Origin: Eledone cirrhosa
Lineage: Eukaryota
Assembly: GCA_964016885.1 (NCBI GenBank)
Contig: OZ024744.1
Span: 36,394,001-36,458,000 of the forward strand
DNA length: 64,000 nt
Direction of reading: 5' to 3'
The notes beneath the pieces are model-generated. The model had not been told where the DNA came from, made no database searches, and saw only the letters and a program-made list of their open reading frames with translations. This document shows, one piece after another, positions 8,020 to 50,800 of this stretch (position 1 is its first letter; every line of letters starts with the position of its first letter). A program made the translations under genes and the position numbers.

Positions 8020-11000
8020 ACGATATTAAACAAATGGAAACTATATTTATAAAACCATATTTATTTCATTATATATATTTCAGGGATACCATATTAAAAA
8101 TATGGCATGCCTTTCTCAGACAAAATACAATATATAAACCGTTTTATAAATAAATTTGGCATACCTAGAACAGTGCAACTTCCATTTAAAAAGTTGATTT
8201 GGTAGTGAAAATGTTGAGGGCAGTTAAAAAAAAAGAAGGACGAAGAGAAAAAAGAAAAAAAGAAGAAAAAAGAAAAAAGAAGAGAAGAAGAAAGAAAGTG
8301 TATAGTGCTAAGGACAGTTAGAGAAGAAGATGAAGAGATGTATGTAAAGAAAACAACAGAGCGAGATAGAGAGAAAGAGATATGGGAGAGAGAAATATAT
8401 TGAGGAAGTGAAAAATGATAGGCAGCTTGGAGACAGATGATCAGCGTACAAATGAGATATTAAGGAGGGAAGGGGGTACTGTAATTATTTATTTATTTAT
8501 TTATGATAAATAAAGAGAGGTAGAGAGAGATATATGTGGTGGGAGAAAAGAGGTAGATCGAGTAATATCTATCATACGAGGTGGGAGAGATACAGTTAAA
8601 AATTAAAACAGCCGATATATAAGTCCCGTCAAGTGTAGAGGAGAAAAAGAAAGAAAGATGATATATTTAAAATATTATGTCTCGTCCATTTGAATTATCA
8701 ATTCATATGAATTAGGTATTACAATGTAGATGTCAATATTCATGAATGAGACACATATCAATAATGTGTGAAAAAATGAAAAAATAATGACCCCATGTTT
8801 AGTTTAAAAATTCTTAGGTTTATAAGCAAAATCTGAGATAAAACTTCAAAAATAGTGAAATACATAAGTATATATGTATTTTCATGAAAAAAGAAAAAGA
8901 GAAAAGAGAAGGTTATCTCAAATTCAAGTTGACAATTATGGACACACATGTGAATTTACGTGATCGGCTCTGTAAAATCATATTTTCATGAAAAGCTTCA
9001 TTGCGTTACAAAAGATTCCACCATACATATATGTACATACATATATATATAGACATAAAGTGTACATTAATATTAATAATAATATTATTCTTGCCCTCAC
9101 TTACATGATTATCGTTCAAGCATAGAATAGACAACAGATATCAATATATTAAAAATATATTAAAAATATATACTAAAAACATATATTAAAAACGCCAAGA
9201 ATATCTTCGTCACTCCACAGAGTAACTAGGGACGCAATAAAACATAGTATGCCACGCATATCAACCACAGAAAACCACCCTTCAAATTTATTTAACAATA
9301 TATTGTCAAGTTCATTAGAAGCAATCAGAATCAAAAGTAAACTAAACCAAAATTATTCAACAAACCTTATTTAGCAGAAATCATTCAAAAAAAAAATTTA
9401 TTCTACAAATGCTCTTATATTTATTATAGAAGTTTATCTAGCTTAAAAATGTATTCAATAGATTGGGAACATCACCATTATAGGGTACTTTAATTAATCT
9501 TATTAATTTATATACTCATGCAGAAGGTTTTTTAAAAAATTGAAGGAATCGAAAGATTTATCGGCAAGTTTCATAAATAGTTAAATATCTTAAGTAAATA
9601 TACTACATTTTAAATTTATATTTATATTTAAAAGTTGAGTTCAATCTATGTCTGCAGCAGCTGAATAAATTGGTCCGTAAATTAAGGGAATTTTTAGATT
9701 TTAGTATAAAGAATATCTCCTCCGCGCAGAGGTCACATGTCTCAGAAGAGGAATTAAAAGGAATCCCTTTTGAGACTATATTCCAAACCATCGAATATCC
9801 AACGTTATCATGTTTAAGTTGCCAGAGTAAACCTGATAGTGATGTTGAAGATGTTTTACTTGGATCCGTGAAAGAATTCTTGTGATTATTATAGCGAAGT
9901 TTAAATTCTGTCGAGGTGGAACCAACATAATTAAAAGAATTTAAGTCAGTTTTAACATTACAGTTGTATATTATATTTTTAACTAAGCAATTGTTATTTA
10001 GCGGACATTTAGATCTATCTCTACAGTTACAGTTGTTTACTTGAATATTGTTTAGGCTATTTTCGGTATTTTGGCTAGGTTTTAGATTCCTATTATTTAT
10101 TCTATTAATATTTTGTGCTAAATTTTTGGTGGACGAGTATGTTAATTTTATAGTATGTCTATTGAAAATTGAGTGATACTTATGTGTTCTAGGGAAGCGT
10201 TTGTCAAGAGCATTAAAAAATAGTTTAGCGATGTGGGTTTTAATGTTTAGTGAGGAAGGGGGGGGGGGCAAACCATATTATATTTCTAGTTCTATTTCTT
10301 TTCTGGTTTTTGGAATTATTGTAATGCTTTCTATTATAGTTGTTAAAGTTGTTACTGTGATTAAAATTGTTGTTATTTCGGTTAGTTTGTCTATTATCGA
10401 TGTACATAATTGTATCACTATATCCTGCTCTAGCTAACGCATCATTGTAATACTGGGCTTTTTCGTCGAAAATATTTTTTATTAGATGAGATTCTAGAGA
10501 TACGTTTTTGAACAGAGTTCACTATCGTATTTTTGACAGATCTGGGGTGATTAGAGCTAAAACTGACATAATTCAAGTTTTCATTTAACTTGTGAAATGG
10601 ATAGTGAAGGCATGTGTTGAGATTTAATGTTACATCTAGGAAATTGACTATTCTATGGTTATTTTCAATTTCTATTTTTAGATTAAGGTAATTAAAAAAT
10701 TGTATAATTTGTTTTCTTTTTCTATTAAGTTCACATTTATTATTTTCAATAAGTAAAAGCATGTCATCTCTATATAATCCTCCGGTAAGACCGGGTATTT
10801 TCCTATGCAGCGAATTAATTATAAATAGGCCCACAAGGTCCGTTACCTGAGCTGAGTCGGATGATCCCATAGTAATGTCAAAATTATTATCTCTATCTGC
10901 CCTAGTCCATAGTTGGTTATTAAATTCTATCAATGTTTTCCTTGCCGATAATATAATGTGCATTTCATTGCTAGTTAGGTCTGTATGTTTGAATGCGTAA

Positions 11001-12512
11001 TTTAGAGCCTTATTTAGTAGATTAGGGGTAATAGATGAATAGTAGTTAGCAATATCTAGTTGAATAAATTTATTATTATTGTTATATTTAATTTCATTAA
11101 ATCACTCAATGACCTCCCAAGTTCCCTTCCACAAGGTCAAGTTAGGTAAACAGTTCAAGTTTTTAATTTGCTGTATCACCCTGTCTAGAATGTTTTTGCT
11201 AAGCTTACCCAGGTCAGATTTTGATGGTGCAATCAATCTGACTGGCAAGTCATTTTCAAAATTCCTTTTATGATCTTTCATATTGATCTTGGGTTTCCTG
11301 GGCACGAAAGGTTGTGTTTTGTTCTCAATTTCCAACTCATGCATTATACAAGATGCCTCAACATTCATTTTCTCAAGTTCAGCCTTATCTGCTACCTTGT
11401 ACTTTTTCCTTAGTTCTTTCAGTATGAGGCCATTATACATGTCTTTTTCCACTCCATAGAGGTTGTTGGTTTTGTCCGATTTCACCAAGATCTTCTCTGT
11501 TCTCTCTAACCTCACAATATTATCCTTAAAGCTTTTCAGATACTCCTGGCCTTTGAAGTTTCTCTTGAATTTGACTCCTTGTATGATAGAAATTATATCG
11601 TTTTCAAAATCAATTAAAAGTTTGTTGGGGGGTGGATTTTTTTGGATTTGAAAACTTTGTCTAAGTCTGAGACATTTTCATTTATATTAGATTTATCAAA
11701 GTGGAATGCACGCCGCCTGATTCTCCTTATAAAAGAGTCTGATTTATCTATTAGTTGTTTAATAAAGTCCTTGTTTCTAGGTAGAGATATGTCTTTTAGA
11801 GAAGAAGAGATCTTAAAGAATTCCATTTTTTCAGTTATAATATAAAGCGCTCAACAGTATTGGAGCAAAATATATGCAAAAGTTTTATTTAAAATTGTAG
11901 GGTTACAACGAGTAAATATTTTATAACTGATATAAAGGCACTCAACAGGTTTTGGAGTAGGTTTACGATATTAAACAAATGGAAACTATATTTATAAAAC
12001 CATATTTATTTCATTATATATATTTCAGGGATACCATATTAAAAATATGGCATGCCTTTCTCAGACAAAATACAATATATAAACCGTTTTATAAATAAAT
12101 TTGACATACCTAGAACAGTGCAACTTCCATTTAAAAAGTTGATTTGGTAGTGAAAATGTTGAGGACAGTTAAAAAAAAAGGACGAAGAGAAAAAAGAAAA
12201 AAAGAAGAAAAAAGAAAAAAGAAGAGAAGAAGAAAGAAAGTGTATAGTGCTAAGGACAGTTAGAGAAGAAGATGAAGAGATGTATGTAAAGAAAACAACA
12301 GAGCGAGATAGAGAGAAAGAGATATGGGAGAGAGAAATATATTGAGGAAGTGAAAAATGATAGGCAGCTTGGAGACAGATGATCAGCGTACAAATGAGAT
12401 ATTAAGGAGGGAAGGGGGTACTGTAATTATTTATTTATTTATTTATTTATTTAGTTATAGTGTTAAGGATACGGAGAGAAATATGATAAATAAAGAGAGG
12501 TAGAGAGAGATA
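8020..12512 (-). mobile_element. Near full-length Penelope-like element (Naiad-like) with ~500-bp direct terminal repeats (probable pLTRs)
   Basis: ORF fragments 11826 to 9603 contain KSDKT, PVRLI, MGSSDSAQVTDLVG, GLYRDD, FLDVTLNL, SNHP, CNCxxxxxCPL, YVGST and CDLC...CCRH. Bases 8020-8533 are repeated at 11966-12512. Confidence 0.85.
9603..11826 (-). pseudogene. Penelope RT-GIY-YIG polyprotein, frameshifted
   Basis: Colinear ORF-track pieces 11614-11826, 11102-11515, 10442-10963 and 9603-10271. Confidence 0.85.
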
Positions 12513-28253: not shown

Positions 28254-31200
28254 ATGCCCACACGGAAACGTTCAAGACTTACCTCCAAAAAAGGTACAGC
28301 TACTGCTTTGAGACAACGAATTAGGCGTTCTCAGGTATGAGTTCATTCACAATTGATTAATCCTTTATGCAATATTCTCCCTTAATGTTAGCAAGTACTG
28401 CGTTTATCCTAACTGTCACCACTGTTAAGCAACTACAACATTCTAATCGTAGTTATATTAAATTTATTGTCTTACCTTGATTCCCTTTTGTTCATGTTAG
28501 ACTTTTCTCATTTACTATTGACACTGCCATTGGCTTAGCTAACCAGTAGAATTAATTAATTTTCTCTAGCAAACACCTGCTGAGCGCGAATCTCGACTCG
28601 CTGATAGACGTCTTTCCCGGCTGGTTGAGTCACCAACATCACGTACGACAAGGCTTGCTGATGTTCGCCTTCGTCGCCAACATGCGCTGGCGGAGGAATC
28701 ACCAACATCCCGTCAGACAAGGCTTGCTGGGGTTCGCCTTCATCGTCAACAAGCACTTGCAGAGGAGTCCACGGCAGACAGAGACAACAGGCTTGCTGAT
28801 AAGCGTTCCCGGCATACGTTAACTACTACTACCAAGAGCACAGACTGGGTAAAAGCAGCCTTCAGATATAACCCCTCTGAGGATTACGGACTTCTGCCTA
28901 CAATTTCCATCGGTAAAATGGATAATGTCTGTACATCCTGCAACGCAATGAAGTGGCCAGGCGAGGCGCCTTCTATGTGTTGTGCAGGAGGTGAGGTGCA
29001 ACTAGGAGCATTGGCTGACCCGCCATACGTTCTTCTGAATCTACTTACAGGTGACGACACTACGGCTACAACGTTCCGCCGTAACATGTGGAAATACAAC
29101 TCCTGTTTCATGATGACCTCCTTTGGTGTAGACAATAACAACACCAACAACAGCGTGAACCCCAACAACAACGTTTTCACTACATTCAGACTTCAATGCC
29201 AATGCTACCATCGCATGGGTAGTCTACGTCCGCGTCCAAATGAAGAGCCAAAGTTTCTGCAGGTTTTCTTTTTGGGTGGAGGTGAGGCCGAGATTGACCA
29301 ACGCTGTAAGTTAAACGAGGGTGTAGATAGGCGAATAATAGCAGGTCTGCAGGCAATGCTCCATGTGACTCATCCCTACGTTCACGATTTCAAGTTTGCC
29401 TTGGGACAAATTGAAACCACGCCGAACCTCAAGGTGATTATAAGGGCTGACAGGCGACCAGCTGGCGAGCATGCCCGTCGTTTCAATGCACCAAATACCA
29501 ATGAGGTGACAGTGATTTTGGTTGGCGAGGAGCACGGTAAACGCGATATTGTCCTTCAGCACTGTGACAGTCGGCTGATGTTTGTCACAGAGACACATAG
29601 ATCTTATGATTGCCTTCAGTATCCTCTTTTATTCCCCCACGGAGAGGACGGATACAATTTTGCTCTTCGTCATGTAAATTATTCCAATGGTAGTGAATCA
29701 CGGAAATCCATTTCATGTATGGACTTTTATGCCTACCGCTTTATGGTAAGGAGTAGAGATTTTAATCAGCTTCTTCGATTCAGGCAGCTGACGAATCAAT
29801 ACATTGTGGATATGTTTGCCAAAATCGAGGCCGAACGTCTGCTCTTTATTCGACTCAACCAAAAGAAACTGCCTGCGGAGGAATACATCCATTTACAGGA
29901 CGCCCTGATTCGTGATGGCTATGCCGGAAACGTCGGACAACAGGTGATCCTTCCATCAAGTTTCACAGGATCCCCTCGGTATATGCACCAAAGAACTCAG
30001 GATGCAATGTCTTATGTTCCTAAGTTTGGCAGGCATGATCTTTTCATCACCCTCACTTGCAATCCAAAATAGGAGGAAATTCAAACCTACCTCTTCCGGG
30101 GCCAGGTGAGTAGTAACAGGCACGACCTCATAGCCAGAGTCTTCCAGCAGAAACTCAAGAAATTGATGTGGCTACTGAAAGACGGCAAAATATTTGGTGG
30201 TCTTAATGCATGGATGTATACCGTGTAGTGGCAGAAGCGGGGACTACCACATGCTCACATCCTTATATGGTGCAAGGACAGGATACGGCCAACATTATTT
30301 GCGCAGAACTGCCCAATCCGCAAACCGATGTGGAATTGTTCAAAACCGTGAACAAACAATTGATGCACGGACCCTGCGGCGCCCTTAACTTTAATTCACC
30401 TTGCATGGAGAATAACAAGTGCACTAAAATGTTTGCACGACCTTTTACACGGGAAACACGCACAGGGATCGACGGCTATCCTATCTGCACGGGCAGGAGA
30501 TTGTCCTCGACAACAGGTGGGTGGTACCATATAACCCTCTTCTTGCCAAGATTTTTAATGCTCACATCAATGTTGAGTCATGTACGTCGGTGAAGAGCAT
30601 TAAGTACATATGCAAGTACATAAACAAGGGAGGGGATATGGCTGTCATTGAACTCCAAGGTGGCAGGGCACAACCTGATGAGATACAGCAATATCAAATC
30701 GGCAGGTACATTTCATCCAATCAGGCGATTTGTAGGATTTTTGGTTTTGACATTCATCAGCGTTCACCAACAGTCGTAAACTTGAATATTCACTTGGAGA
30801 ATGGGCAAAGAGTGTACTATACTGACGAAACCGCCAGCCGCGTTGTGGCCAACCCACCTGCAACAAAATTAACGGCTTTCTTCCAATTGTGCCAAGAAGA
30901 TCCGTTTGCTAAAACGCTTCATTATGCCGACGTCCCAACCTACTACACCTGGGCACATAATAAATGGACCAGGCGCCGACAGGGAGCACGCGTTCACGTG
31001 AACGGAGAAGACGTTTTGAAAAGCGATGCCATCGGGAGGGTGTACACAGTGCATCCAAATTACCATGAGTACTTTTATTTACGTATGTTGCTGCACAGTG
31101 TTAGGGGTCCTACTTCTTTCACTGAGCTACGGCGCATCAATGGCAAACTCTGCACTACGTATAGGGAGGCATGTGCCAAACTTGGACTCTTGGAAGATGA

Positions 31201-32949
31201 CGCTCAATGGGATCAGACTCTGGAGGAGGCTACTGCCTTCAAAGCACCAATTCAACTGCGCCAGCTGTTTTCGATCATGCTGATGACATGCGGTTTGAGT
31301 GACCCCTTAAAGCTTTGGGAGGCACACAAAAACAGCATGGCCGAAGACTTCCTCCACCGACTTCTACGTCAGGACCCTACGGCTGGGTTTGAATATAATT
31401 CTGCTATCTACAACGAGGCCTTACTCGACCTAGATAAACGAGTCCAAGCAATGGGAGGTCAGGGCGTCGCTACCTTCTGTTTGCCCCAACCACAGCAATC
31501 ATCCAGTTCATTAAACATCGAGTACATGCGCGAGGTTAGCTACGACCAGGTGCATTTGGCAGTTTATGTACAGCTCAACGAGCCTCGACTTTTGTCAGAC
31601 CAGAGGACTGCCTACAACATGATAATCTCCAGTATTGACTGCAAAGCGGGAGGTATTTTTGTTCTTGATGCTCCGGCGGGAAATAGCAAGACCTTCGTCA
31701 TCAACTTGCTTCTGGCTAAAGTTAGGCAATGCGGACAAATTGCTTTAGGAGTGGCCTCCAGTGGCATAGCGGCAACCCTGATAAATGGCGGTCGTACAGC
31801 CCATTCATTATTTAGGCTACCCTTAGATTTATCCAAGAGGGAAACGCCCACCTGCAATATCAGTCGCAGCTCGACAAAAGGCAAAATTCTGAACGAGTGC
31901 AACCTCATCATTTGGGATGAAGCGCCAATGAGCCATAAAGGCGCCTTTGAGGCTCTCGACTGTACCCTTCAGGATCTTAGGCACAATACACGGCTTATGG
32001 GTGGCGTGACAGTTTTGCTTGCTGTGGATTTTCGACAGACCCTTCCTATTATTTCGAAAGGAACAAGGCAGACGAGGTGAACGCAAGCATCAAGTGTTCC
32101 TACTTGTGGCAAAATATAAAAACGATGCATCTTACAACTAACATGAGAGTCCATCTTAGTGGTGATGAAGAGACCACGGTGTTCTCCAGGCAACTATTGG
32201 AAATAGGCAATGGCACTATAGTTGGCGAAAATGACGGTGCTATATGTCTTCCGTTTGGGCATGTTGTACCTAAAGCCGAAAATCTCATGTCAACGGTGTT
32301 TCCTTACCTACCCAGAAATTACACTGATCCCGATTGGCTGAAGCAGCGCGCAATCTTAGCGCCGAAAAATTTCACTGTGGATGCATTAAATTTTAGACTC
32401 CTAGAACAACTCCCTGGTGATTCCATCAGTTACAAGTCCATAGACTCTGTTCCCAACACGGACGAGGCGGTGCATTACCCGGTTGAATTTCTAAACAGCC
32501 TTACACCACAAGGACTTCCCCAGCATAACTTGCTACTTAAAAGAGGCTCTCCAGTTATGCTGTTAAGAAACTTAGACCCTCCGAAACTTTATAACGGAAC
32601 GTGGCTGACCATTAAGACCATGATATCAAAAGTCTTAGAGGCTACTGTCTTAAATGGACCAACCAGTGGTGAGGATGTCTTCATACCCAGAATACCGCTC
32701 ATTCCATCTGATATGCCCTTTCAGTTTCGACGACTGCAATTTCCATTGAAATTAAGCTTTGCAATGAGCATTAACAAGGTGCAAGGGCAGTCATTACAGG
32801 TGGTTGGCTTAGAACTTTCTGAACCTGTTTTTTCACATGGCCAGTTGTATGTTGGGTGCTCAAGGGTCGGGAGTCCAGAAAGCCTCTTCATCCATGCCCC
32901 TGAGGGCAAGACACAAAACGTCATCTACCATGAGGCGTTAGAGAATTAA
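28254..32949 (+). pseudogene. Helitron RepHel (HUH Rep plus Pif1/SF1 helicase), two predicted exons, few lesions
   Basis: Zn motif CTSC..MCC; Rep motifs FITLTCNP, WQKRGLPHAHIL, YICKYINK; helicase DAPAGNSKT, GGRTAHS, IWDEAPM, FRQTLP, RLQFPLKLSFAMSINKVQGQSL, HGQLYVGCSR. Predicted intron 28335-28569. Confidence 0.93.
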
Positions 32950-40040: not shown

Positions 40041-41127
40041 GAAAAGAATAATAAAAAACCTATAAAAGTAAGTACACATGAGTCTGTCTGCGAATGCGCC
40101 CGCACACAGTCCTATGTGGGAACAAAATACTAGTGGGTGAGTGAGGACAAGAGGGGAGTAAAAATGAAATAAACACAATTATAAAGAGTAGGTAAGGGAG
40201 AAACGTATGCGAAGAGATCTAGATAAGAGTATCTGGTTAAGGATTAAACTGAGTAAAGGATAAAGGTGGTGGGTGTGTGTGTAAGGGGTAAGGTAAAAAG
40301 TAGAGGGAAATATAAGTCAACAGAAAAATAAATATAATAGGAAAAATATAAATATCAGGAGATATAGGAGGAGATGAGGGAGAACATATGGGTAAGGAAT
40401 GTGAGTTCAGAGAGTAATAAAAATCGTAGTGGATGGAAGGCGTAATGAGTAAAGAAGAAGCTCAAGGTGGTTGAGTCATCGTAGAAATGTCAATCCAGTT
40501 ACAAAATAGATGCGATTTCAGGCGAGGACAACATCTGAAGATCTCGGTCTTGGAGTTAAGGCAACTGGAAGTGGCTTTCAAATTTTGGAGAATTCTCTTT
40601 TCCTGTACCTTTCCGACGGAATTACTTCATTTATATATATATATACTAGACCGAAAAATGCGGGCGCATGTGTATTAATATTCTTAAATAATAATAAACC
40701 TGGAAAAGTGCAGGACAAATAGAATTAACTCTTAACATATTGAAGCTGGAATTTGAATTTGATGAATTTAATGTACAGTAAAATTAGCAATGCCAAGAGA
40801 TAATAAGAAATAATAATGAATTAGGGGATTTATTAGATATTAAGTCATCAGTTTGCATAAGTCAACAATCACCATTTTGCCAACCAAATGCAATTAATGT
40901 CATCAATCTTTTGTACATAAATTGTCAGTTCATTTAAGTTGTCACTTTTTTTGTCCCTTTAGTGGGGTAATTATACTGTATTACTTTAAAGATTGACAAT
41001 AAAAATTAATTGAAATTAATAGTAAAAAGTAATGAGCTAAATTTTGCATAAATTGTCATCATATGAAAATTATTAATCTAATTTCATTTAAAAAAAAGTT
41101 AAGCCAAAATTTGTCAAGATCGAATTA

Positions 41128-41245
41128 CAGTTGACTCTCCCTAATTGTCAGCACCATTTTTGGCCCAACTTTTATTTGTTGTGACTCTCCCTAATTGTCA
41201 GTCATTTTACAGTTCCTTTGAGTGACAATTAGAGATAGTCAACTG
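41128..41245. mobile_element. Small TA-flanked MITE (pogo/Tigger-like CAGT...ACTG)
   Basis: TA-CAGTTGACTCTCCCTAATTGTCA ... TGACAATTAGAGATAGTCAACTG-TA, with an internal repeat of the TIR core. Confidence 0.75.
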
Positions 41246-41717
41246 TATTTCAAAAGGAAAATTCAGTGATCAAGTGCGATATCATTCTGAGTGATAATCT
41301 GGATTACTGTTCCTTTCTTATGAGGAAAGCAGAGACTATCTTTTAGAGATTAGCACCAAAGATTAAGTAGGCCATTCCTAATGAATCAAGGTGATTTCTA
41401 GATCGTTTCTAATTATTTAATTAATAATTAAAGTAAAAAATTATCTTGGTTGTCTTTAGGTCATTCTTGTGTTATTCTAAATCTATCCATGAAAGAGCTA
41501 GGAATGACCATTCCACATGCCAGTGCCGAAACGCTGGCACAGAAATGCCTGCACCGAAACGTCCTGTTCCATGCCATCTTAACAACCTTCACCTCCTTGT
41601 GATTAAGTGTGATGTCATAGGCTTATTTAATTCATCAAATTCAAATTCCAGCTTCAATATTTTAAGAGTTAATTCTACTTGTCCTGTACTTTTCCAAGTG
41701 TATTATTATTTAAGAAT

Positions 41718-41744
41718 GCTGGCCTTGTGCCTAAAGTAGAAACA
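41718..41744 (+). mobile_element. 27-bp SINE 3'-end insertion with 16-bp TSD
   Basis: GCTGGCCTTGTGCCTAAAGTAGAAACA flanked by ATTATTATTTAAGAAT (41702-41717 and 41745-41760); absent from the opposite arm of the inverted repeat. Confidence 0.88.
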
Positions 41745-42204
41745 ATTATTATTTAAGAATATTAATACACATGCGCCCGCATTTTTCGGTCTAATCCCCC
41801 CCTTTTTTAAGGCATTGCCGCAAATTATTTTATTTAAATTACCTTGACCATTTGCTAAGGCATTTACAATCCTTTTTTCATCAATAAAAATTAATTTTTC
41901 ATTTCAATATTTTTATAAAATCCAAAATATTAAAATTGAAAAGGTATTTTGTAGAATATAATCAATAGAGACATTTTCCTTTTCTGAACACCCTTACTAC
42001 AAGCCTTCAGGTGTGCCCATAGAGACAAAGCTATAATAGACTATACTCTAATGATCAATTTAGAGTTTAACTTAACAAGTGAAGTTATTAAAGAGGCTAG
42101 AAAAACAAGCAGTTAAAATAACTGAGTCAAAAATAAATAAAATTAAGCAGTAAATACATAAAATGCCAATAAACAGTGAGCTCAAATTCAACAATAATTT
42201 GTCC

Positions 42205-42430
42205 ATAATTAGCAGTTAGTCCAAAATAAAATTATGTAGTCCAGAATTAGCATTTAGTCCCAAATAAAATTAAGTAGTCCAGAATTAGCATTTAGTCCAA
42301 AATAAAATTAAGTAATCCAGAATTAGCATTTAGTCAAAAATAATCAGCAAGCAGTCCAAAACAAAATGAAGTAGTCCAGAATTAACAGAAGTCCTAATTA
42401 TAAGTTGGTAGTCCAAGATCAATAGTCCAA
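42205..42430. repeat. Tandem ~39-bp repeats in the 3' region of the Helitron-like element
   Basis: AAATAAAATTAAGTAGTCCAGAATTAGCATTTAGTCC, about five degenerate units. Confidence 0.85.
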
Positions 42431-42439
42431 ATAAAAATT

Positions 42440-44360
42440 CTAAATTGTTTCCATAAACAATACAATCACATTAGGTAACTTAGGAGGAAATTTATTGTGC
42501 CTTTTTTTGATAATGTTGTCACTAATTTCATCCCAATTTTCAGCACCACTTTTTACCAGACAAGTATAATGGCCTGCCGTAGATGATACTCCTTCATGAA
42601 GAATAGCAGCTTTTAATGTGAAATTTGTGCCATATATTTACTGCCCTTTTGAGCTAAAGTTCATAATATCACAATTAATTCTTTGTTCTCCTTCATTATT
42701 AATCAAAACTCTACTAATTGAGATGACAAGATATTTGAAATCGTTAGTAAATTCAATTCTTGAAGTTATTTGATGCTCAGTGTTTTCAGAACAAGTATCA
42801 CAGTATTTAGTCAAAGTATTTGTTGTTGAAAGTAGAGATTTAAATTGTTGTGTGCCATTAATAGGATTTAATATCAAATCCTCTTTTATTTGAAATGGAA
42901 GTTCAGATTCTATACCACATCCAGGTCTTGAATTACAATTGCAAACATTGTTATTTAAAGCTTGGCAATTTGTTTCATACAATCGGATGCATCTAGTATG
43001 ATCAGTTTGAATAAATTGAAGTTTTTCTCTAAATACCAAGTCCAAAATTCATGAGCACATTGCTTATTTCCATCAAGAAATCTTCCTCCAATTATTCTTC
43101 TTAAGTTAGAGACATTATTATGATTATTAAAAATGATATTGCTTAATTCTTGATGTACTCCATTCATGTTGTTAAAATTATGCAAATTGTACAAATTCAG
43201 GCAATTGATTCAGTGATTGCACAACTGAATTTGCAAAACAAGTATTTCTTTGGTTGGTCAATTGATGTTTAGGGATTAAAGTTTGGCTGTTTTCATTTCT
43301 TTTCTTCTTTTTGGCAGGTTGGTTTGAATTTTCTTCCAAATTAAGTCTTTTAGTTCATTTCTTGGGCATGCTAGAAGCATTTGCCATGCAAGGATGCTTT
43401 TTCCTGCAAGGTGGCAATGGAGGCAAATCTGCTCTTCCAGTACTAGCCCGTAGTTTGTTGTACTCTTCCCATGCAGATTTGTCAACCATGATCAATGATC
43501 TTGGATCAAAGTCACAGAGATACACATTGCAAAGTTTTCTGGCTCTTGAAAGAGCCACATAAGCTTGACCATCAGAAAATATCTGATTTCCTAAATCAGC
43601 AATTATTCCATCCACAGAAATTCCTTGTGATTTGTGAATTGTTATAGAGTAAGCAAGAGACAATGGAAATTGTGTTCTGGTGACAAAAACACCAGGAGAA
43701 ATTTCATAGTCTGCTTGAACTCTTCCAATGGAAATGGATTTGTCCTTTTTGGTATCAAAAGACACCAACATTTTGTCACATTGCTTCCATTCCCAATTAA
43801 TTCAATAACTGTTCCAATAACACCATTGCATAAGCCTTGATCTACATCAATGTTTCGTTTCAACATCACTCTTGCTCCAATTCCAACATTTAGCAAAGTT
43901 TCTAGTCCAGCAGTATCAGAAGTTTTCTTGTTTTTGCCTTTTTCAACATTTTTCTTTGTTCTTCCATTTACTTGTCTCATACCAGAATCTTTTGCAGCAA
44001 GTTTCACTGCATTTATGTTGCATTTTTTAATCATTTCATTATTCAACTCATCAACAGCTTCATTCAAAGGTAAAATGCATACAAAATTTAATTCAGGAAT
44101 AGAATACAATTCAATCAATTTTTTAGCAATTTCTTCGACAGATGCTTTTCTATCAGTAAATAGGCATCTTTTTTGAAGAATGCTAATATCAGAGTCTGAT
44201 GAGGAACCAATCCTAGTTCTTCCAAAATATCAACATAGTTGTCTTTGTCTTCTATTTGTCTCATATTAATGGTTAGCTCATCATATTGAAAGTATTTCCA
44301 CAATGAATGCCCACTAATGCCAATTTCTGTTTTTTTGGCCTCATATGATGAAATTCTCGA
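42440..44360 (-). pseudogene. 5'-truncated Helitron/Helentron-like Pif1 helicase fused to a C-terminal USP (peptidase C19) domain
   Basis: Helicase: LWKYFQYDELTINMRQ, GARVMLKRNIDVDQGLCNG, RTQFPLSLAYSITIHKSQG, GQAYVALSRA. USP: LTNQRNTCFANSVVQSL, KQCAHEF, CDTC, AILHEGVSSTAGHY, WDEISD. Confidence 0.85.
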
Positions 44361-44741
44361 TAATGTTTATTTGAGTTACTTAAGGGAAACTACTTGGTAC
44401 AGCTACGATGGATGTATACTAGAGTTATGTCTCTTAGCGTTACTCCTCATCTGATTTCGTCACTTAAAGTCACACAACTCTATTTCTATGACACCAATCT
44501 TTTCAATATTGACAAATTTCGATTCAGCTTATGGAGTTCTATCTACGGAGATGAGTAGCATGACATTTTATTCGAAATTTAAAAAAGTTATGATGAGTCA
44601 AAGTCAATGAGGTGCCTTATCCGCCACTACTTGACCACATATTTTAGCGTAACTTTTTCCTACTGACCCAAATTTCAATTTCGTTATAGCAAAATGTAAC
44701 CTGGGATGAGTCCATTCTAGTGCAAAAAACCTGATCAAATT

Positions 44742-47700
44742 GTGCTGGGATTGTATGGAGCTAGTGGATAGGGGAAGAGGGTGCAAGAGCCTCACCAACC
44801 TGCTCAGACGTTTTGAACTGTCTGACAGGTATCGACTGGATCACCCGAATGTGCCAATGTGGACATGGACAAACCGTATCGGGTCATCCAGATCGTATCT
44901 CGATAGGGTATTCTGCAGAAAACTAGATAAGGTTAGTATAAGTTGTCCACAATTTAAAATAGTCGACTACACAGACCACAAATTTGTGATCTGTGAGGTC
45001 GACATAGACAGACTTCATAGACAAGGGCCTGGTTACTGGAAGCTGAACGCGTCTTTCCCGGCGCGCAAAGCCTACCAAGACCGGATTAGCGTATTACTTA
45101 AGCGGTTGTTGACGGGAACGGTCGTCAACAACAGGTGGTGGTTCGCCCTGAAAAGGGCAATTAAAGTAGAGTCGATTAGGTTTGCAAAGGACTAGTGATA
45201 GAGGAACATAGAGTAGAGGGAGAGCTAGTCAGAATGCTAGAAGAGGGGTTTGGGACAAGCAACGCAACCGACGTGTTTGCGGCGAGATTGGCATTCGAAC
45301 AATTCTTCAACGCAAAACACGAAGGCTGCGTTGTTAGAGCTAGAGCGCGTGCTCTGAAACACGAGGGGACAAAAGCCTTCAAATTGGCCCGAGTGGCAGA
45401 GGCGCGACGTGGAAACAAAGCCACAATTCGGTCATTATCTGAGCAAAACGGGTGAGGGTTGCTCGAACCCGAGCAGATGTATGAAGCTTTTCAGCAGCAA
45501 TTTGCTGAACTGTTCGGGAGCAGCGGCGGCCTGGATCGGGGCATGGACTTCAGTGCATACCTCGACGGACTGCCTCGGCTCTCGACGACCGCAGCACAGT
45601 GTTGCGAAGAGCCAATAACCTCCGGTGAAATACGGGAAGCGATGGCTAACTACATGAGGGGTAAATCGCCAGGTTTGGATGGTCTGCCCTACGAGCTTTA
45701 TGCATTTATGCCAAACTTGTTCGGTGACCTCTTGGCAGACGTCTACTGCAACTGGCAGCAGAACGGGAGCATTCCCAGTTTTATAAGCCGGGGAGCGGTG
45801 GCGCTGCTGAGAAAAGACCCGATCAAGGGGGATGTTATCGATAATTTCAGGCCCATTACTCTGCTAAACGCAGAGTTCAAGATTTTGGCCAAGGTCTTAG
45901 CAACGAGGTTGGCGCTTCTCGTCAAGGGTCTGGTGGGAAAGGCGCAGGCATGCGCCATTCCGAACAGATCCATACACGACCACCTCCACCTCATGCGATA
46001 CATCATAGATAGGGTGGTTAAGGAACCTGGCATGGGTGGGGGCCCTGATCAACTTGGATCAATCCAAAGCATTCGATAGGGTCGACCATCGGTACCTGGC
46101 GGCGGTCCTCGAGGCAGCCGGTTTCGGGCCCGTTTTCAGGAGTTGGATCGCTGCGAAGTACAGCGACATCTGCTCGGTTGTGAGGGGGAACCGTCACCTG
46201 TCGCAGCCGTTCAGCATCATGCGCTTGGTCCGCCAGATTTGACCCCTCTTGTCCTTCTTGTACGTATTGGCTCTCGATCCGTTACTGCACAAACCGGGGG
46301 CGACGAGGGGCGTCCCACACGAACTAGGATGCGGGAAATCCGAGTCGGCTTACTCTGACGACGTCACCGTGGTGGTATCGAGCACCAGACACATCCAGAT
46401 GCTCGGCACCGCTCTCAAGGAATATGAAGCGGTGACAGGAGCAAAGATAAAACAGGAAAAGTCGGTAGGTTTGCAGCTCGTCACCTGGAAAGGCAAGTCC
46501 ATGGCGTCCGACAGCGTCGTGGGGCGTTGGACGGACGGACCGGTTAAATTGCTCGGGGTCTGGTTCGGATCGGACCTCCAGATGGAGAAAAACTGGAACG
46601 AGGTGACGAGCAAGGTGGCATCCCTCACCTATAAATGGGCCGAGAGGTGGCTGTCCCTGAAAGACCGGGCGGAGGTGGCGAATGCGTACATTGCATCCGT
46701 CATCTGCTACCGCCTCACCGTCGTCCCTTGCCTCGGCCCACCTCTCACCAAAATGGAGCGCCTCCTCTTCCGCTTTTTGTGGAAGGGACGCGCTCCCATG
46801 GTCAGACTATCCATCTGCTGTCAACACCCTTTGCGTGGAGGACTGGGCATGCCATGGCTGATGATGCGCAAACATGCGCTGAGGCTGAGGCATCTCTGGT
46901 GCTTCCTTGACGGTGAACAGGTGTGGTCGCTGTTCGCCAGGCATGTTTTTCCACAGCTCGTCTCCTTGACGCTGCTGTCCTTGGTTGGCAGGAAAAGCCC
47001 GAGGGATAGCGCTTGGAAACTGGCATGTCTGCAGGCGCTCACTGCCCTCTACCAGCTGGGCACTGATATAGGTGGAACATCCACCTTCGTGTTCTATAGA
47101 GGGCTAGTGGAGGGGAAGAGCGACGGCGTTCTCGGAGAGATCCTGGGCGTCGCAGAAGATCAGCTGTTTGTTCTCTTCCGGAGAACTATCAGCCCAGGGC
47201 CTATGGATAACTTCCAAAACTCCCTGGCCTAGCAGTGCTACCGGGGAGCGCTGCCGGTTCGAGATAAGCTCTAGAGGCAAGGAAGTGCGGTCAGCCGAAC
47301 CTGTCCGAGAGCGCGCAGAGCGACGAAATCGTCGTGCACGCACTCGTTCAGTGCCCGAGCATTGCTGACTTGTGGAGCTATGTCGAACAGTTGCTGTCGC
47401 GTGTAGGACTGATCCGGTTATCGACTGAGTCTATTGTGCAGATGGTCTCGCCGTCTTCCTTCGAGGAGGAAGGGCAGGCGGTTTTCATCTGCCTGGTGGC
47501 CATGGCGAAAGAGATTGTGTGGTGGAACAGGTTGAAAGGGATAAAGACAGACACTCTCCACTTCGGCGAATCCCTAATTAACTTTTTCAAGTTTCACTTG
47601 AAGAGGAATATCAGGGAGGATTTTATTGTTTATATATATATATACGTTTCTATGTCCTTTTTTTCTTTTCTTATATAAATAATTAAAATATTTACACGCA

Positions 47701-47801: not shown

Positions 47802-50800
47802 GTTCTTTGAGTCTCAGTCATTGATGGTAGTTATCTGGAAAGTTTGTTGAAATGAATATCAAGCCACTCCCTGCAGCCTCAGATATTCAGGATGTATCGG
47901 AGGGTTCTTGCTGTTCCCAGCAAGCATGCCTTTTGCAGCGTTCCAAAAAGCGTGGCGGGGCCAATTTTCTTTAACCATCCCTGGAAACCTTTTGAGATAG
48001 TACCTAGTGCGCCTATGACAATCGGGACCACTTTGACTTCATGGCAGTTCCAAATCCTTTTTACCTCCCACTTTAATTCCTGGTATCGGTTAATTTTCTC
48101 CCTCTCCTTCTCTTGTACTTACGTGTCGAATGGGCAGGCCACATCCACAATCAGGCACGATCTTTTTTCCTTGTCCACAACCACCAGGTCAAGTTTATTG
48201 TGTTCCAGTTTCTTGTCCGTCTGTATCCTAAAATCCCACAGCACCTTCACCTGATCGTTTTCTATCACCGCCTCTGGCTTATGCTCATACCACTTCTCAG
48301 AATGTGGTAAATTGTTTACTTTGCATAGGTGCCAGTGGATCACACTGCCCATCACATCATGTCTCCAGCCTTTATAGTGAGTCTGGGCTAGGTGTTTACA
48401 CTCGGATACAATTTGAGCCACAGTCTCCTCTCTCTCTCCACAGATCCTGCAGGTGGACTAGCCTCCTCCTTGTAAATATGGTGTTTCAACCACTTCGTTT
48501 TGAGAGCCTGCTTGCGCAGCCATTAGCATTCTTTCTGTAGCCTTTTTAAGGTCTCCTCTTTTCAACCAGTTCCATGTCTGTGGATCTCTGAATTCAGTTT
48601 TCTCAAAGAAGGTTCTATGAAGGGATTTTTCATGAAGGCTGCTCTTTCTCCTTGTTATTTCCTCCTTGGACATCTCCTGGTCTATTGTCCTCTCCTTCAG
48701 TACAATTCTGAGCATTGGCTCCTTACTATTTGTGTAGGTCATTTTTCTCCATCTGAACACAGTCCGCTATGCTGATAAGACCTCTTCCACCTTCAGATCT
48801 CCTTAAGTAGAGTCTATCGACATCACTCCTCTTGTGGAACATGTTGTAGATAGTCAATAGTTTCCTAGTTTTCCTATCCATTTCTTTTTGTTCAGCAACA
48901 TTCCATGTCAGAATTCCCGCACTGTACCTAATAATAGACACAGCTCGGGAATTTACTGCACTTATGGCATTCCTACTGTTCAGATGTGACTTTAATACGC
49001 TCCTTACTCTCCGAAGTATTCAGATCTTATCAATTCCTTCATTTTTTTGTTCTTGATGTGATCAGCCTCCAGAACACCCAGATACTTGTATCAGTGTCAA
49101 TTTCCTTTATCATCTTTACCTGTTGGTACCTGGATTCCGTTACTTCTGCTCAATTTACCCCTCTTCATCACAAGGACTCCACACTTACTAATACCAAATT
49201 GCATACATATATCATTGTTGAAAATATGGACAGTGTCAACAAGCACATCCAACTCCTTCTCACTCTTCCCGAAGGGCTTAAGATCGTCCATGAAGAGGAG
49301 GTGATTGATGGTAAGCTCTCCCTTTCCCAACTTGTATCCTGCTCTCACTTTTCGCAGTATAATGGTCAGGGACATCAGGGCAAGGACAAACAACAGAGGG
49401 GACAGACTATCTCCCTGGAAGAAACCTCTCTTGATCTTCACGCTTCCCAAGGATTCTCCAGCTGATGTTAACTCTGTTTTCCAGGACATCATACTTTTGC
49501 CCAACAACTGTTTGATGTTATCTGCCACCTTGAAGATCTCCAGGCTTTTGGTGATCCAAGAATGAGGCACCATATCAAATGCCTTTCTGTAGTCTATCCA
49601 TCCCATGGCAAGACCAGTGTGTCTCCTCTTGCAATTCATCATTACCATCTTATCAATAAGTAACTGGTCCTTTGTACCACGGGACTTCTTTCGGCATCCT
49701 TTCTGTTCGTCAGGTAACAAGTTGTTTTTATGTGGGGGTGATGGTAGATTTCCTCAGACATAATGCTTGTCAACAGTTTCCACATTACGGACAGACATCT
49801 GATAGATCTATAGTTGGCAACATCATTACCCTAGAATCGGTCTTTCATTACCAGAACTGTGGTACCTTTTATCAACCACTCTGGTACCTCACCTGACATC
49901 AAGCAGTCATTGAACATGGTTGTCAGTTTCGGGTGGAGGGATGTTATATTTTTAATCCAATACCCCTGCACACCATCTGGGCCTGGTGATTTCCAGTTGG
50001 TTAGTTTTTTCGCCTGCCCCTTAAGAGTTTCAACTGTGATACTCAAATCAGTTTGTTGGTGTGCCTGTTCACTAATCTCCTTTTGTACTGTCTCAATCCA
50101 CACTGCCTGGTCATTATGTTTAACATCCTGTTCCCATATTCCTCTCCAGAATGTCTTAGTTTGTTCCGCCTCAGGGATCAAGTCGTTGCCTCTTTCTTTC
50201 CCTTCAAGCTGTTCAAACAGCATCATCTGGTTGTTGTCAAAGATGCGGTTCTGTCTATACTGACTGACTCTGCTCTCGTATCGCCTAATTTTTGCACTCT
50301 TTGCTACAATGCGTTGCTTCAATTCCTCTATGATAATATTTAGATTTTCCTCCTAGTTTTGTACTTTATTTCCAGTCTATTTTTAGTGTCTATGTTTTTT
50401 AGTGTCCCGTTCAGTAAGGACTCAAGCTTTCCAATGTCATTTCTCATTTCCCTGATTTGACCATTCAGTGGTTTGTTCCACTAAGGTTCTGATCTTTCTT
50501 GTTTGTTGTTTCCTCTCGCTTTTATGCCAAGTAATTTCCTCACCGCATTTGCTGTTGCTTTGAGGATATCGTTGCACTGGTGAAGGCTCCTCGCCTCAAT
50601 GTATGGGATGACTTTGTTTACCTTAGCTGTTGTTTCTTTTAACTTTTTCCTGTCTACAAATCTTAGGTTCATAGGTTTCCCATTATCATTGTTCAATTCA
50701 TCTACCACTAAGTTTAGGATATCAACCAAATCTTGTCCTAGCCCGTCAGCATTCATCTCCTCAATGGCCCCTGTTCCAGGTATTATTTATTTCAGTATTC

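Follow-up and report, generated by a model that had tools for sequence, protein, structure and literature searches.

The window analyzed here is a 64,000-nucleotide stretch of the Eledone cirrhosa genome. On its minus strand, positions 40646..44741 hold a dead copy of a Helitron-like element of the HLE2 type (family A), with boundaries common to the copies of this family. It is an internal-deletion derivative without the first ~106 bp; the full-length derivative is ~4.3 kb, and the missing 106 bp are absent anywhere in the window. The 5′ non-coding remnant (44377..44741, minus strand) is joined across the internal deletion, which removed DUF6570, Rep, and the helicase Walker A/B motifs. It aligns to positions 8883-9267 of a002 and 11209-11568 of a017, two long copies described below, after which the alignment jumps ~3.4 kb (in a017) to the helicase. 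On the same strand follow the C-terminal half of a Pif1/SF1B helicase (43481..44364), with ELTINMRQ, the 2B domain, TIHKSQG, and motif VI GQAYVALSRA (43570-43541); a linker (43265..43480); and a USP (C19) catalytic domain (42440..43264), assigned from Pfam UCH and from a structure model of a sister family and ~285 aa long in family A. The linker contains a basic stretch, PAKKKKR (43298-43318), that from its sequence is a putative NLS; the linkers of two further families, B and C, have a comparable basic stretch, PPTKKPK.

The initial annotation described a Pif1 helicase fused in frame to a USP, and the fusion holds: motif VI, a TGA codon (43355..43357, minus strand), PAKKKKR, and the Cys box LTNQRNTCFANSVVQSL (Cys codon 43238-43240) lie in one frame on the minus strand. 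Further on, KQCAHEF is out of frame in the window, where it falls between a 2-bp deletion (~43187) and a 22-bp deletion (~43040). The elements CDTC, LVISISR, the His box LKAAILHEGVSSTAGHYTC (His 42569-42571), and WDEISD are all present and restored to the helicase frame, which runs to a natural stop at 42440-42442. The candidate catalytic Cys, His, and Asp listed earlier are likewise all present, with the correction that a Ser occupies the canonical third position and the Asp comes fourth; WDEISD supplies this Ser-Asp pair (42518-42523). Three lesions had escaped the initial annotation: a TAA within the USP (42638-42640) and, in the helicase, the loss of a single base at two places (near 44221 and 43777). 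The fragments match the expected Pfam families. The helicase pieces match Pif1_2B (E 3.5e-8) and UvrD_C_2 (E 7e-6), and the His-box piece of the USP exceeds the UCH cut-off of 23.9 bits (28.8 bits, E 1.2e-6), which the Cys-box piece just misses (22.6 bits, E 9e-5).

The family-A alignment comprises the window copy and 26 of the 29 other loci, three having been dropped that gave no single long match. The TGA is private to the window copy, as the site reads AGA (Arg) in 23 of the 27 aligned copies and TGA in one. The majority frame of the 27 copies is open for 648 codons from the helicase through the USP to the natural stop. Chance adjacency of helicase and USP, which the initial annotation had raised against its own reading, is dismissed because the frame between motif VI and the Cys box is uninterrupted in 9 of the 25 copies that cover it. 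Across the junction, natural ORFs reach 708 aa (L013), 609 aa (L010), 565 aa (L027), and 562 aa (L017); a wholly open USP occurs in 0/27 aligned copies. A contig from public run X2 differs from the window at all four indels and has a sense codon in place of the TGA (T at 43357), and part of the window lesions may be assembly errors. As it stands, the window copy is dead, lacks Rep, and encodes nothing functional; it is ordinary dead repeat DNA.

The 3′ non-coding region begins with degenerate tandem repeats, seen as self-matches (42198..42439, minus strand), and ends with a 3′ ATIR, TTAAGAATATTA (40687-40676), followed after 30 nt by CTAG and then by the T of a TA repeat (right end 40646..40687, minus strand). 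An inverted internal copy of the final ~135 bp of the element, carrying a SINE-tail insertion, lies on the plus strand at 41625..41794; it ends in CTAA, and in most copies in CTAG. This duplication of the 3′ terminus, inverted ~1.1 kb upstream, is a feature of family A (window 40646-40781 and 41625-41794) and gives the 3′ segment a CTAG end facing outward on either side. The duplication may have arisen by fold-back or template switching. Within the inverted arm, 41717..41753 (no strand assigned) is a fragment of a very high-copy repeat, with a depth of 1.2 million in its bin in run X2 and loose ends at 41717 and 41750-41753, and is likely the SINE tail. Depending on the family-A copy, the tail sits in one arm or the other, at an identical ATT-rich spot. 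We considered whether the 1.15-kb inverted-repeat segment is a separate MITE and rejected this: with 40 of 326 candidates scored, the top matches are at element loci, and the arms hold the element ATIR. Flipping of the segment between copies was also rejected, since the arms differ by the SINE-tail insertion and the interior orientation is constant.

The surroundings of the copy contain other mobile elements. Decayed LINE fragments with endonuclease and reverse transcriptase ORFs occupy 44742-47700 (plus strand) and 48100-50800 (minus strand), the former adjoining the truncated 5′ end of the HLE2 copy at 44741. A separate, frameshifted, canonical-looking Helitron lies at 28570-32949 (plus strand) with Helitron_like_N, PIF1, and STPRs, the latter an HLE1 marker according to HELIANO (PMC11417382). 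UCH found no match in its three ORF pieces.

In a search of the same genome, 22 other loci cover most of the query at 89-95% (40 of 202 candidates scored). Family-A copies are mostly ~4.3-kb derivatives like that in the window, in which a 5′ segment of ~470 bp is joined mid-helicase (for example, a007 of 4292 bp and a008 of 4283 bp). The two long copies, a017 (7466 bp) and a002 (9951 bp, with insertions), keep DUF6570, Rep with its HUH and Tyr motifs, and Walker A/B. The copies differ by ~1.5% from the majority, with pN/pS of 1.0 for the USP and 1.2 for the helicase, which points to a recent burst followed by neutral decay. The derivative subfamily to which the window copy belongs would have moved in trans.

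There are two sister families. Family B is represented by L111, a nearly intact DUF6570-Rep-PIF1-UCH copy (1904 aa, one stop, and 507 aa; ~2,400 aa in total). L111 and L112 (G000:C13 and C10) are 99.5% identical over 10 kb including flanks, with the stop codon in common; the pair is a segmental duplication or an assembly duplicate and was counted once. From family C, 16 copies were retrieved, and in the family-C copy L119 motif VI and the entire USP lie within a single ORF. At least five family-C copies (L113, L116, L117, L118, and L120, equivalent to C113, C116, C117, C118, and C120) end their match at one point inside the USP. RepHel is kept in this subfamily while the USP is gone after its first helices, and four of the five have an identical junction, with the His box lost. 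Thus, forms without the USP have multiplied, whether mobilized in trans or because they can do without the domain. Family C also contains nested copies, as L114, L126, and L130 have a second 5′ end.

From its domains and ends, we assign the window element to a multi-copy HLE2 (Helitron2-type) family. An HUH Rep and a Pif1 helicase lie in one ORF in a017 and L111 (Helitron_like_N, EYQQRGAPHxH, YVTxYQTK, PIF1), and DUF6570 (PF20209), an HLE2 marker in HELIANO (PMC11417382), is matched at E 1.6e-10 in family A and 9e-18 in family B. All three families begin with 5′-TC and a 10-bp hairpin on an AC-GGTA-GT core (compensatory changes, ~-10 kcal/mol), then an 11-12 bp ATIR. The ATIRs are of the 8-16 bp type and co-vary between families (TAATATTCTTAA / TTAAGAATATTA in A, TAATATTGTTG / CAACAATATTA in C). 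In families A and C the complementary ATIR lies ~30 nt ahead of CTAG or CTGG; a search for the family-B right end did not find it. Folds past the 3′ ATIR are weak, at -4.1 (A) and -1.2 (C) kcal/mol without shuffle control. The left junction of family A is A|TC in 26/28 copies and the right is CTAG|T in 18/21 counted ends, often within TA repeats; one of the three exceptional right ends may be the internal arm. These A|T junctions, as read from the copies themselves, differ from the insertion between T and T that is usual for HLE2, from which FoHeli1/2 also depart. That trait is typical rather than defining, and we therefore call the element an HLE2 variant.

The 5′-TC, CTRR-3′, and A|T insertion together make up the HLE1 signature. 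Assignment to HLE1 (canonical Helitron) was nonetheless rejected, as the ATIRs, the 5′ hairpin, and DUF6570 are all present. A strict Helentron was rejected as well, because the ORF ends with the USP and there is no C-terminal AP endonuclease; Exo_endo_phos gave no match at E 0.1 in the L111 ORFs. The ends are hybrid, combining the Helitron2 hairpin and ATIRs with Helitron1-like TC…CTRR termini and A|T insertion, and this combination is new here. Helitron2 elements, FoHeli3-5 ("HLE2-reverse"), and the proto-Helentron share with our families a 5′ stem-loop before an 11-12 bp ATIR and a 3′ ATIR ~30 nt from the end, as far as the accessible text of the descriptions goes (PMC3627910, PMC5148889, PMC11417382); a 3′ hairpin is absent in FoHeli3-5, and none is clear in our families. 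All of them differ from our families, which have 5′-TC, CTAG/CTGG-3′, and A|T: in the same sources, Helitron2 and Helentron insert at TTTT|T/C or T|T, FoHeli1/2 begin with TC and end with ATTTT, and the proto-Helentron starts with 5′-TT and is reported only from Phytophthora. HELIANO counts zero proto-Helentron-like elements in its 404 genomes (PMC11417382). Hybrid ends matter for annotation, as tools keyed to Helitron1 or Helitron2 ends can misclassify such families.

The intact USP domains of the sister families score 43.8-49 bits against Pfam UCH (gathering threshold 23.9; L111 43.8), and the best PDB sequence matches of the L111 domain are USP36 and USP15. AlphaFold run on a single sequence gave a pLDDT of 33 and was discarded, whereas AF2 on the family-B domain with a 27-row alignment reached a pLDDT of 84.7 and a pTM of 0.85; the model thus depends on the alignment. 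Foldseek matched this model to USP21 (E 5e-18, TM 0.76), and VIA to USP14 (Z 25.9, rmsd 2.3 Å over 260 residues). Across USP14, USP2, USP12, USP21, and USP30, Z is 24-26 and rmsd ~2.4 Å over ~260 residues, and among the many USPs matched rmsd spans 2.2-2.7 Å. Giant-virus USPs fit as well (E about 1e-16), so no donor can be named; coronavirus PLpro follows at E about 1e-7. Nor was a donor subfamily found by an HMMER scan of cluster representatives, in which the 24 of 119 matches that were Pfam-scanned are helicase-USP fragments, stand-alone USPs, and multi-USP proteins. The model shares with cellular USPs (USP2, USP14, USP21, USP12/46, USP30, USP36) and giant-virus minimal USPs the full hand fold, the zinc-ribbon cysteines, and the Cys and His boxes. 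It differs from them in its 16-21% identity, its minimal length of ~285 aa, QQCA in place of QQDA, and its fusion to a transposase.

The catalytic residues are retained. In L111 they are the oxyanion N10, C15, H246, S262, and D263, and the Cys codon is kept in 26/27 family-A copies. Among 30 long USP domains of relatives, at ~21% median identity, the Cys is present in 27, the His in 26, and the fourth-residue Asp in 29. The Ser-Asp pair is as in USP16/30/45; in these active enzymes, too, the third position is a Ser, and most USPs tested require the fourth-residue Asp (PMC10867860). One substitution stands out: the conserved Asp of the ubiquitin-tail motif QxDA is a Cys here (QQCA), as in 3/30 relatives, with Asp in 23/30. 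This change could alter substrate binding. The USP is predicted to be active on ubiquitin.

The USP is under purifying selection between families and decays neutrally inside family A. Its dN/dS is 0.17 between A and B, where dS is near saturation, and 0.45 between B and C; the helicase gives 0.11 and 0.135, and the USP B-versus-C value is thus well above that of the helicase. Across 24 proteins, the more RepHel has diverged, the more the USP has as well (Mantel rho 0.79, with 0/2000 permutations as high), which is consistent with one old acquisition inherited alongside the transposase.

To place the fusion among known proteins, public protein sets were searched with the Rep-helicase part, and the best 120 of 306 proteins were examined. 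Precomputed annotation gives a C-terminal PF00443 in 24 of these 120, in all 24 downstream of the helicase, and insect relatives with an in-ORF C-terminal USP include Rhodnius, Nasonia, Linepithema, Diaphorina, Bemisia, and Cardiocondyla. With profiles built from these matches, the position after the helicase holds a USP in 35 of the best 120, an OTU in 49 (one protein with both), and Ulp1 in 3; no domain was seen there in 34, of which 32 are short-tailed or without a helicase end. Combinations also occur: P0097, P0109, P0032, P0068, P0092, P0095, and P0107 have a tandem double USP (whitefly), USP plus OTU, or an N-terminal Ulp1 with a C-terminal USP. An earlier word-index search with the USP domain only, weak and restricted to proteins of 505-2000 aa, had found nothing. 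On a RepHel tree of 31 rows, hand-picked from 121, there are at least three changes of protease class, and a grouping of all OTU proteins in one clade is rejected (p-AU 0.00026, in a test picked after the first tree, with a quick search and no mixture model). The trees cover DUF6570-type relatives only and are midpoint-rooted, so that an ancestral USP is not established by them.

The association of UCH with Helitron-like elements is not itself new. HELIANO (Li et al., NAR 2024) lists UCH as one of 20 domains stably carried by such elements, almost only in HLE2 and enriched in subgroups c and d (PMC11417382). With this listing and the 24 relatives above, the view in the initial annotation that the arrangement is not a recognized one has to be given up. 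The concern that the architecture is already annotated proves partly right: those c/d elements resemble ours in a DUF6570-marked transposase with PF00443, but HELIANO counts UCH, found mostly in lungfish and axolotl, among domains "encoded in different ORFs" from RepHel. Here, and likewise in the insect relatives, the USP is C-terminal within the RepHel ORF. The accessible text of that report contains no catalytic or functional analysis of UCH. In zebrafish Helentrons, VTD deubiquitinases cleave K48, K63, and K11 chains in vitro, and protection from the proteasome has been proposed (Erven et al., Nat Commun 2022, PMC9741609). Those Helentrons, with VTD and/or OTU, also pair a rolling-circle transposase with a papain-fold deubiquitinase for the same proposed purpose. 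They differ in protease class, in a C-terminal AP endonuclease, and in demonstrated activity, where our elements have a C-terminal USP of predicted activity. In the literature searched, which lies outside Repbase reports and subscription papers and was in part accessible as excerpts, HELIANO and Erven et al. alone are relevant to an in-frame RepHel-USP, and no such fusion was found described or assayed. What is added here is the in-frame fusion, the swappable slot after the helicase, and the hybrid ends. The central proposal of the initial annotation, a rolling-circle element with its own intronless C-terminal USP, is borne out, with the fusion in frame, the catalytic residues kept, and purifying selection between families.

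We favor the following reading, to which we assign a probability of roughly 0.6. The window contains a dead, truncated copy of an HLE2-type family whose single large DUF6570-Rep-Pif1 ORF ends in an in-frame USP, and this USP is likely an active deubiquitinase tethered to the transposase, stripping host ubiquitin while the transposase works on DNA. Helitron Rep uses its HUH and Tyr residues to nick single-stranded DNA; transposition depends on these residues as well as on the helicase and goes via circles, and the rolling-circle model has a 5′-phosphotyrosine intermediate (PMC4778049). A viral HUH-DNA adduct is recognized as a DNA-protein crosslink and recruits PARP1 and SPRTN, and such crosslinks are SUMOylated and ubiquitylated for proteolysis (bioRxiv 2026.01.09.698661). 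By analogy, the host would mark the covalently bound RepHel with ubiquitin as a crosslink, and the tethered USP would reverse these marks, its main target presumably being the bound RepHel or neighboring chromatin or repair marks. The transpososome would thereby survive long enough to complete strand displacement. The presence of Ulp1, of a SUMO-protease family, in the slot of some relatives fits such crosslink protection. Weighing against protection of the transposase are the USP-deleted family-C copies, the Asp-to-Cys change in QxDA, and the USP dN/dS of 0.45 between B and C. Helraiser, a reconstructed bat Helitron1, also transposes in human cells, and the accessible description mentions no protease domain (PMC4778049).

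There are three other explanations for the USP. An active deubiquitinase could instead be aimed at host targets (H2A-K119 or H2AX, PCNA or FANCD2 ubiquitin, or silencing factors at donor or target sites) and so lift silencing or steer repair to fill-in. We consider this a serious but distinctly less probable reading. Fusion to a DNA-bound transposase through an NLS-like linker would bring the USP to chromatin, and the folds nearest to it include USPs that act in chromatin and repair (USP21, USP36, USP1, USP12/46), though all are tied at 16-21% identity. The OTU and Ulp1 swaps in the same slot, however, suggest low substrate specificity, which bulk removal near the transposase fits better than one histone mark. 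It is improbable, in our estimate, that the domain is a processing protease or an isopeptidase for a ubiquitin-like modifier (SUMO/NEDD8/ISG15-like) in the manner of viral PLpro, cutting the ~2,400-aa polyprotein or the modifier. The Cys in QxDA, the Ulp1 domain in the slot of some relatives, and a 2A-like GCVELNPGP close to the start of the protein in families B and C, which hints at polyprotein processing, could all be read this way; yet the top structural matches are canonical ubiquitin-specific USPs across the full hand fold, PLpro appears in the viral fold list with far less support than giant-virus USPs (about 1e-7 versus 1e-16), and Peptidase_C98 (USPL1) gave no match to the domain.

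That a fragment of a host gene was captured and is carried along as a functionless passenger, or that the USP is a neighbor by chance, is largely refuted and very improbable. Helitrons are known to capture genes, and both the neutral decay in family A and the USP-deleted family-C copies would suit a passenger. Neutral decay within a family is, however, expected of any transposon gene, including the helicase, and a passenger would not be expected in frame and intronless in three families and 35 of the best 120 distant relatives, with catalytic residues kept at ~21% identity, dN/dS below 1 between families, and co-divergence with RepHel.

Returning to tethered ubiquitin removal at the transposase, a broader and more tentative proposal, which we regard as possible rather than probable, is that in one HLE2 clade the C-terminus of the transposase is a "protease socket" whose occupant can be exchanged. 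OTU would have replaced an ancestral USP at least twice and Ulp1 once, since host SUMO/ubiquitin-dependent DNA-protein-crosslink repair attacks the covalent HUH-DNA intermediate and any tethered isopeptidase protects it. On the same proposal, the families would represent HLE2 with Helitron1-like ends in an animal, a kind of intermediate previously reported from Phytophthora only. With the same position swapped repeatedly, host ubiquitin or SUMO would look like a general obstacle to the transposition of Helitrons. If active, the USP would be a third unrelated deubiquitinase class in rolling-circle transposases, beside VTD and OTU, and a minimal stand-alone USP of ~285 aa, like a means of stabilizing HUH transposases, could serve Helitron-based gene delivery.

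The 2A-like sequence ALILSLLIIGCVELNPGP lies at L111:727-747 (ORF aa 127-133), after a hydrophobic N-terminal region. CVE[LF]NPGP is in frame in family B and in 6 of the 10 family-C copies that have an NPGP match, a degenerate GVQSNPGP is found in family A (a002), and DIESNPGP or DVEYNPGP in 3/120 relatives. No mention of Helitron 2A peptides was found in the accessible literature, including one 2A survey (PMC12338488). Ribosome skipping at this site is uncertain because a Cys stands for the canonical Asp; the sequence could release the transposase from an N-terminal leader.
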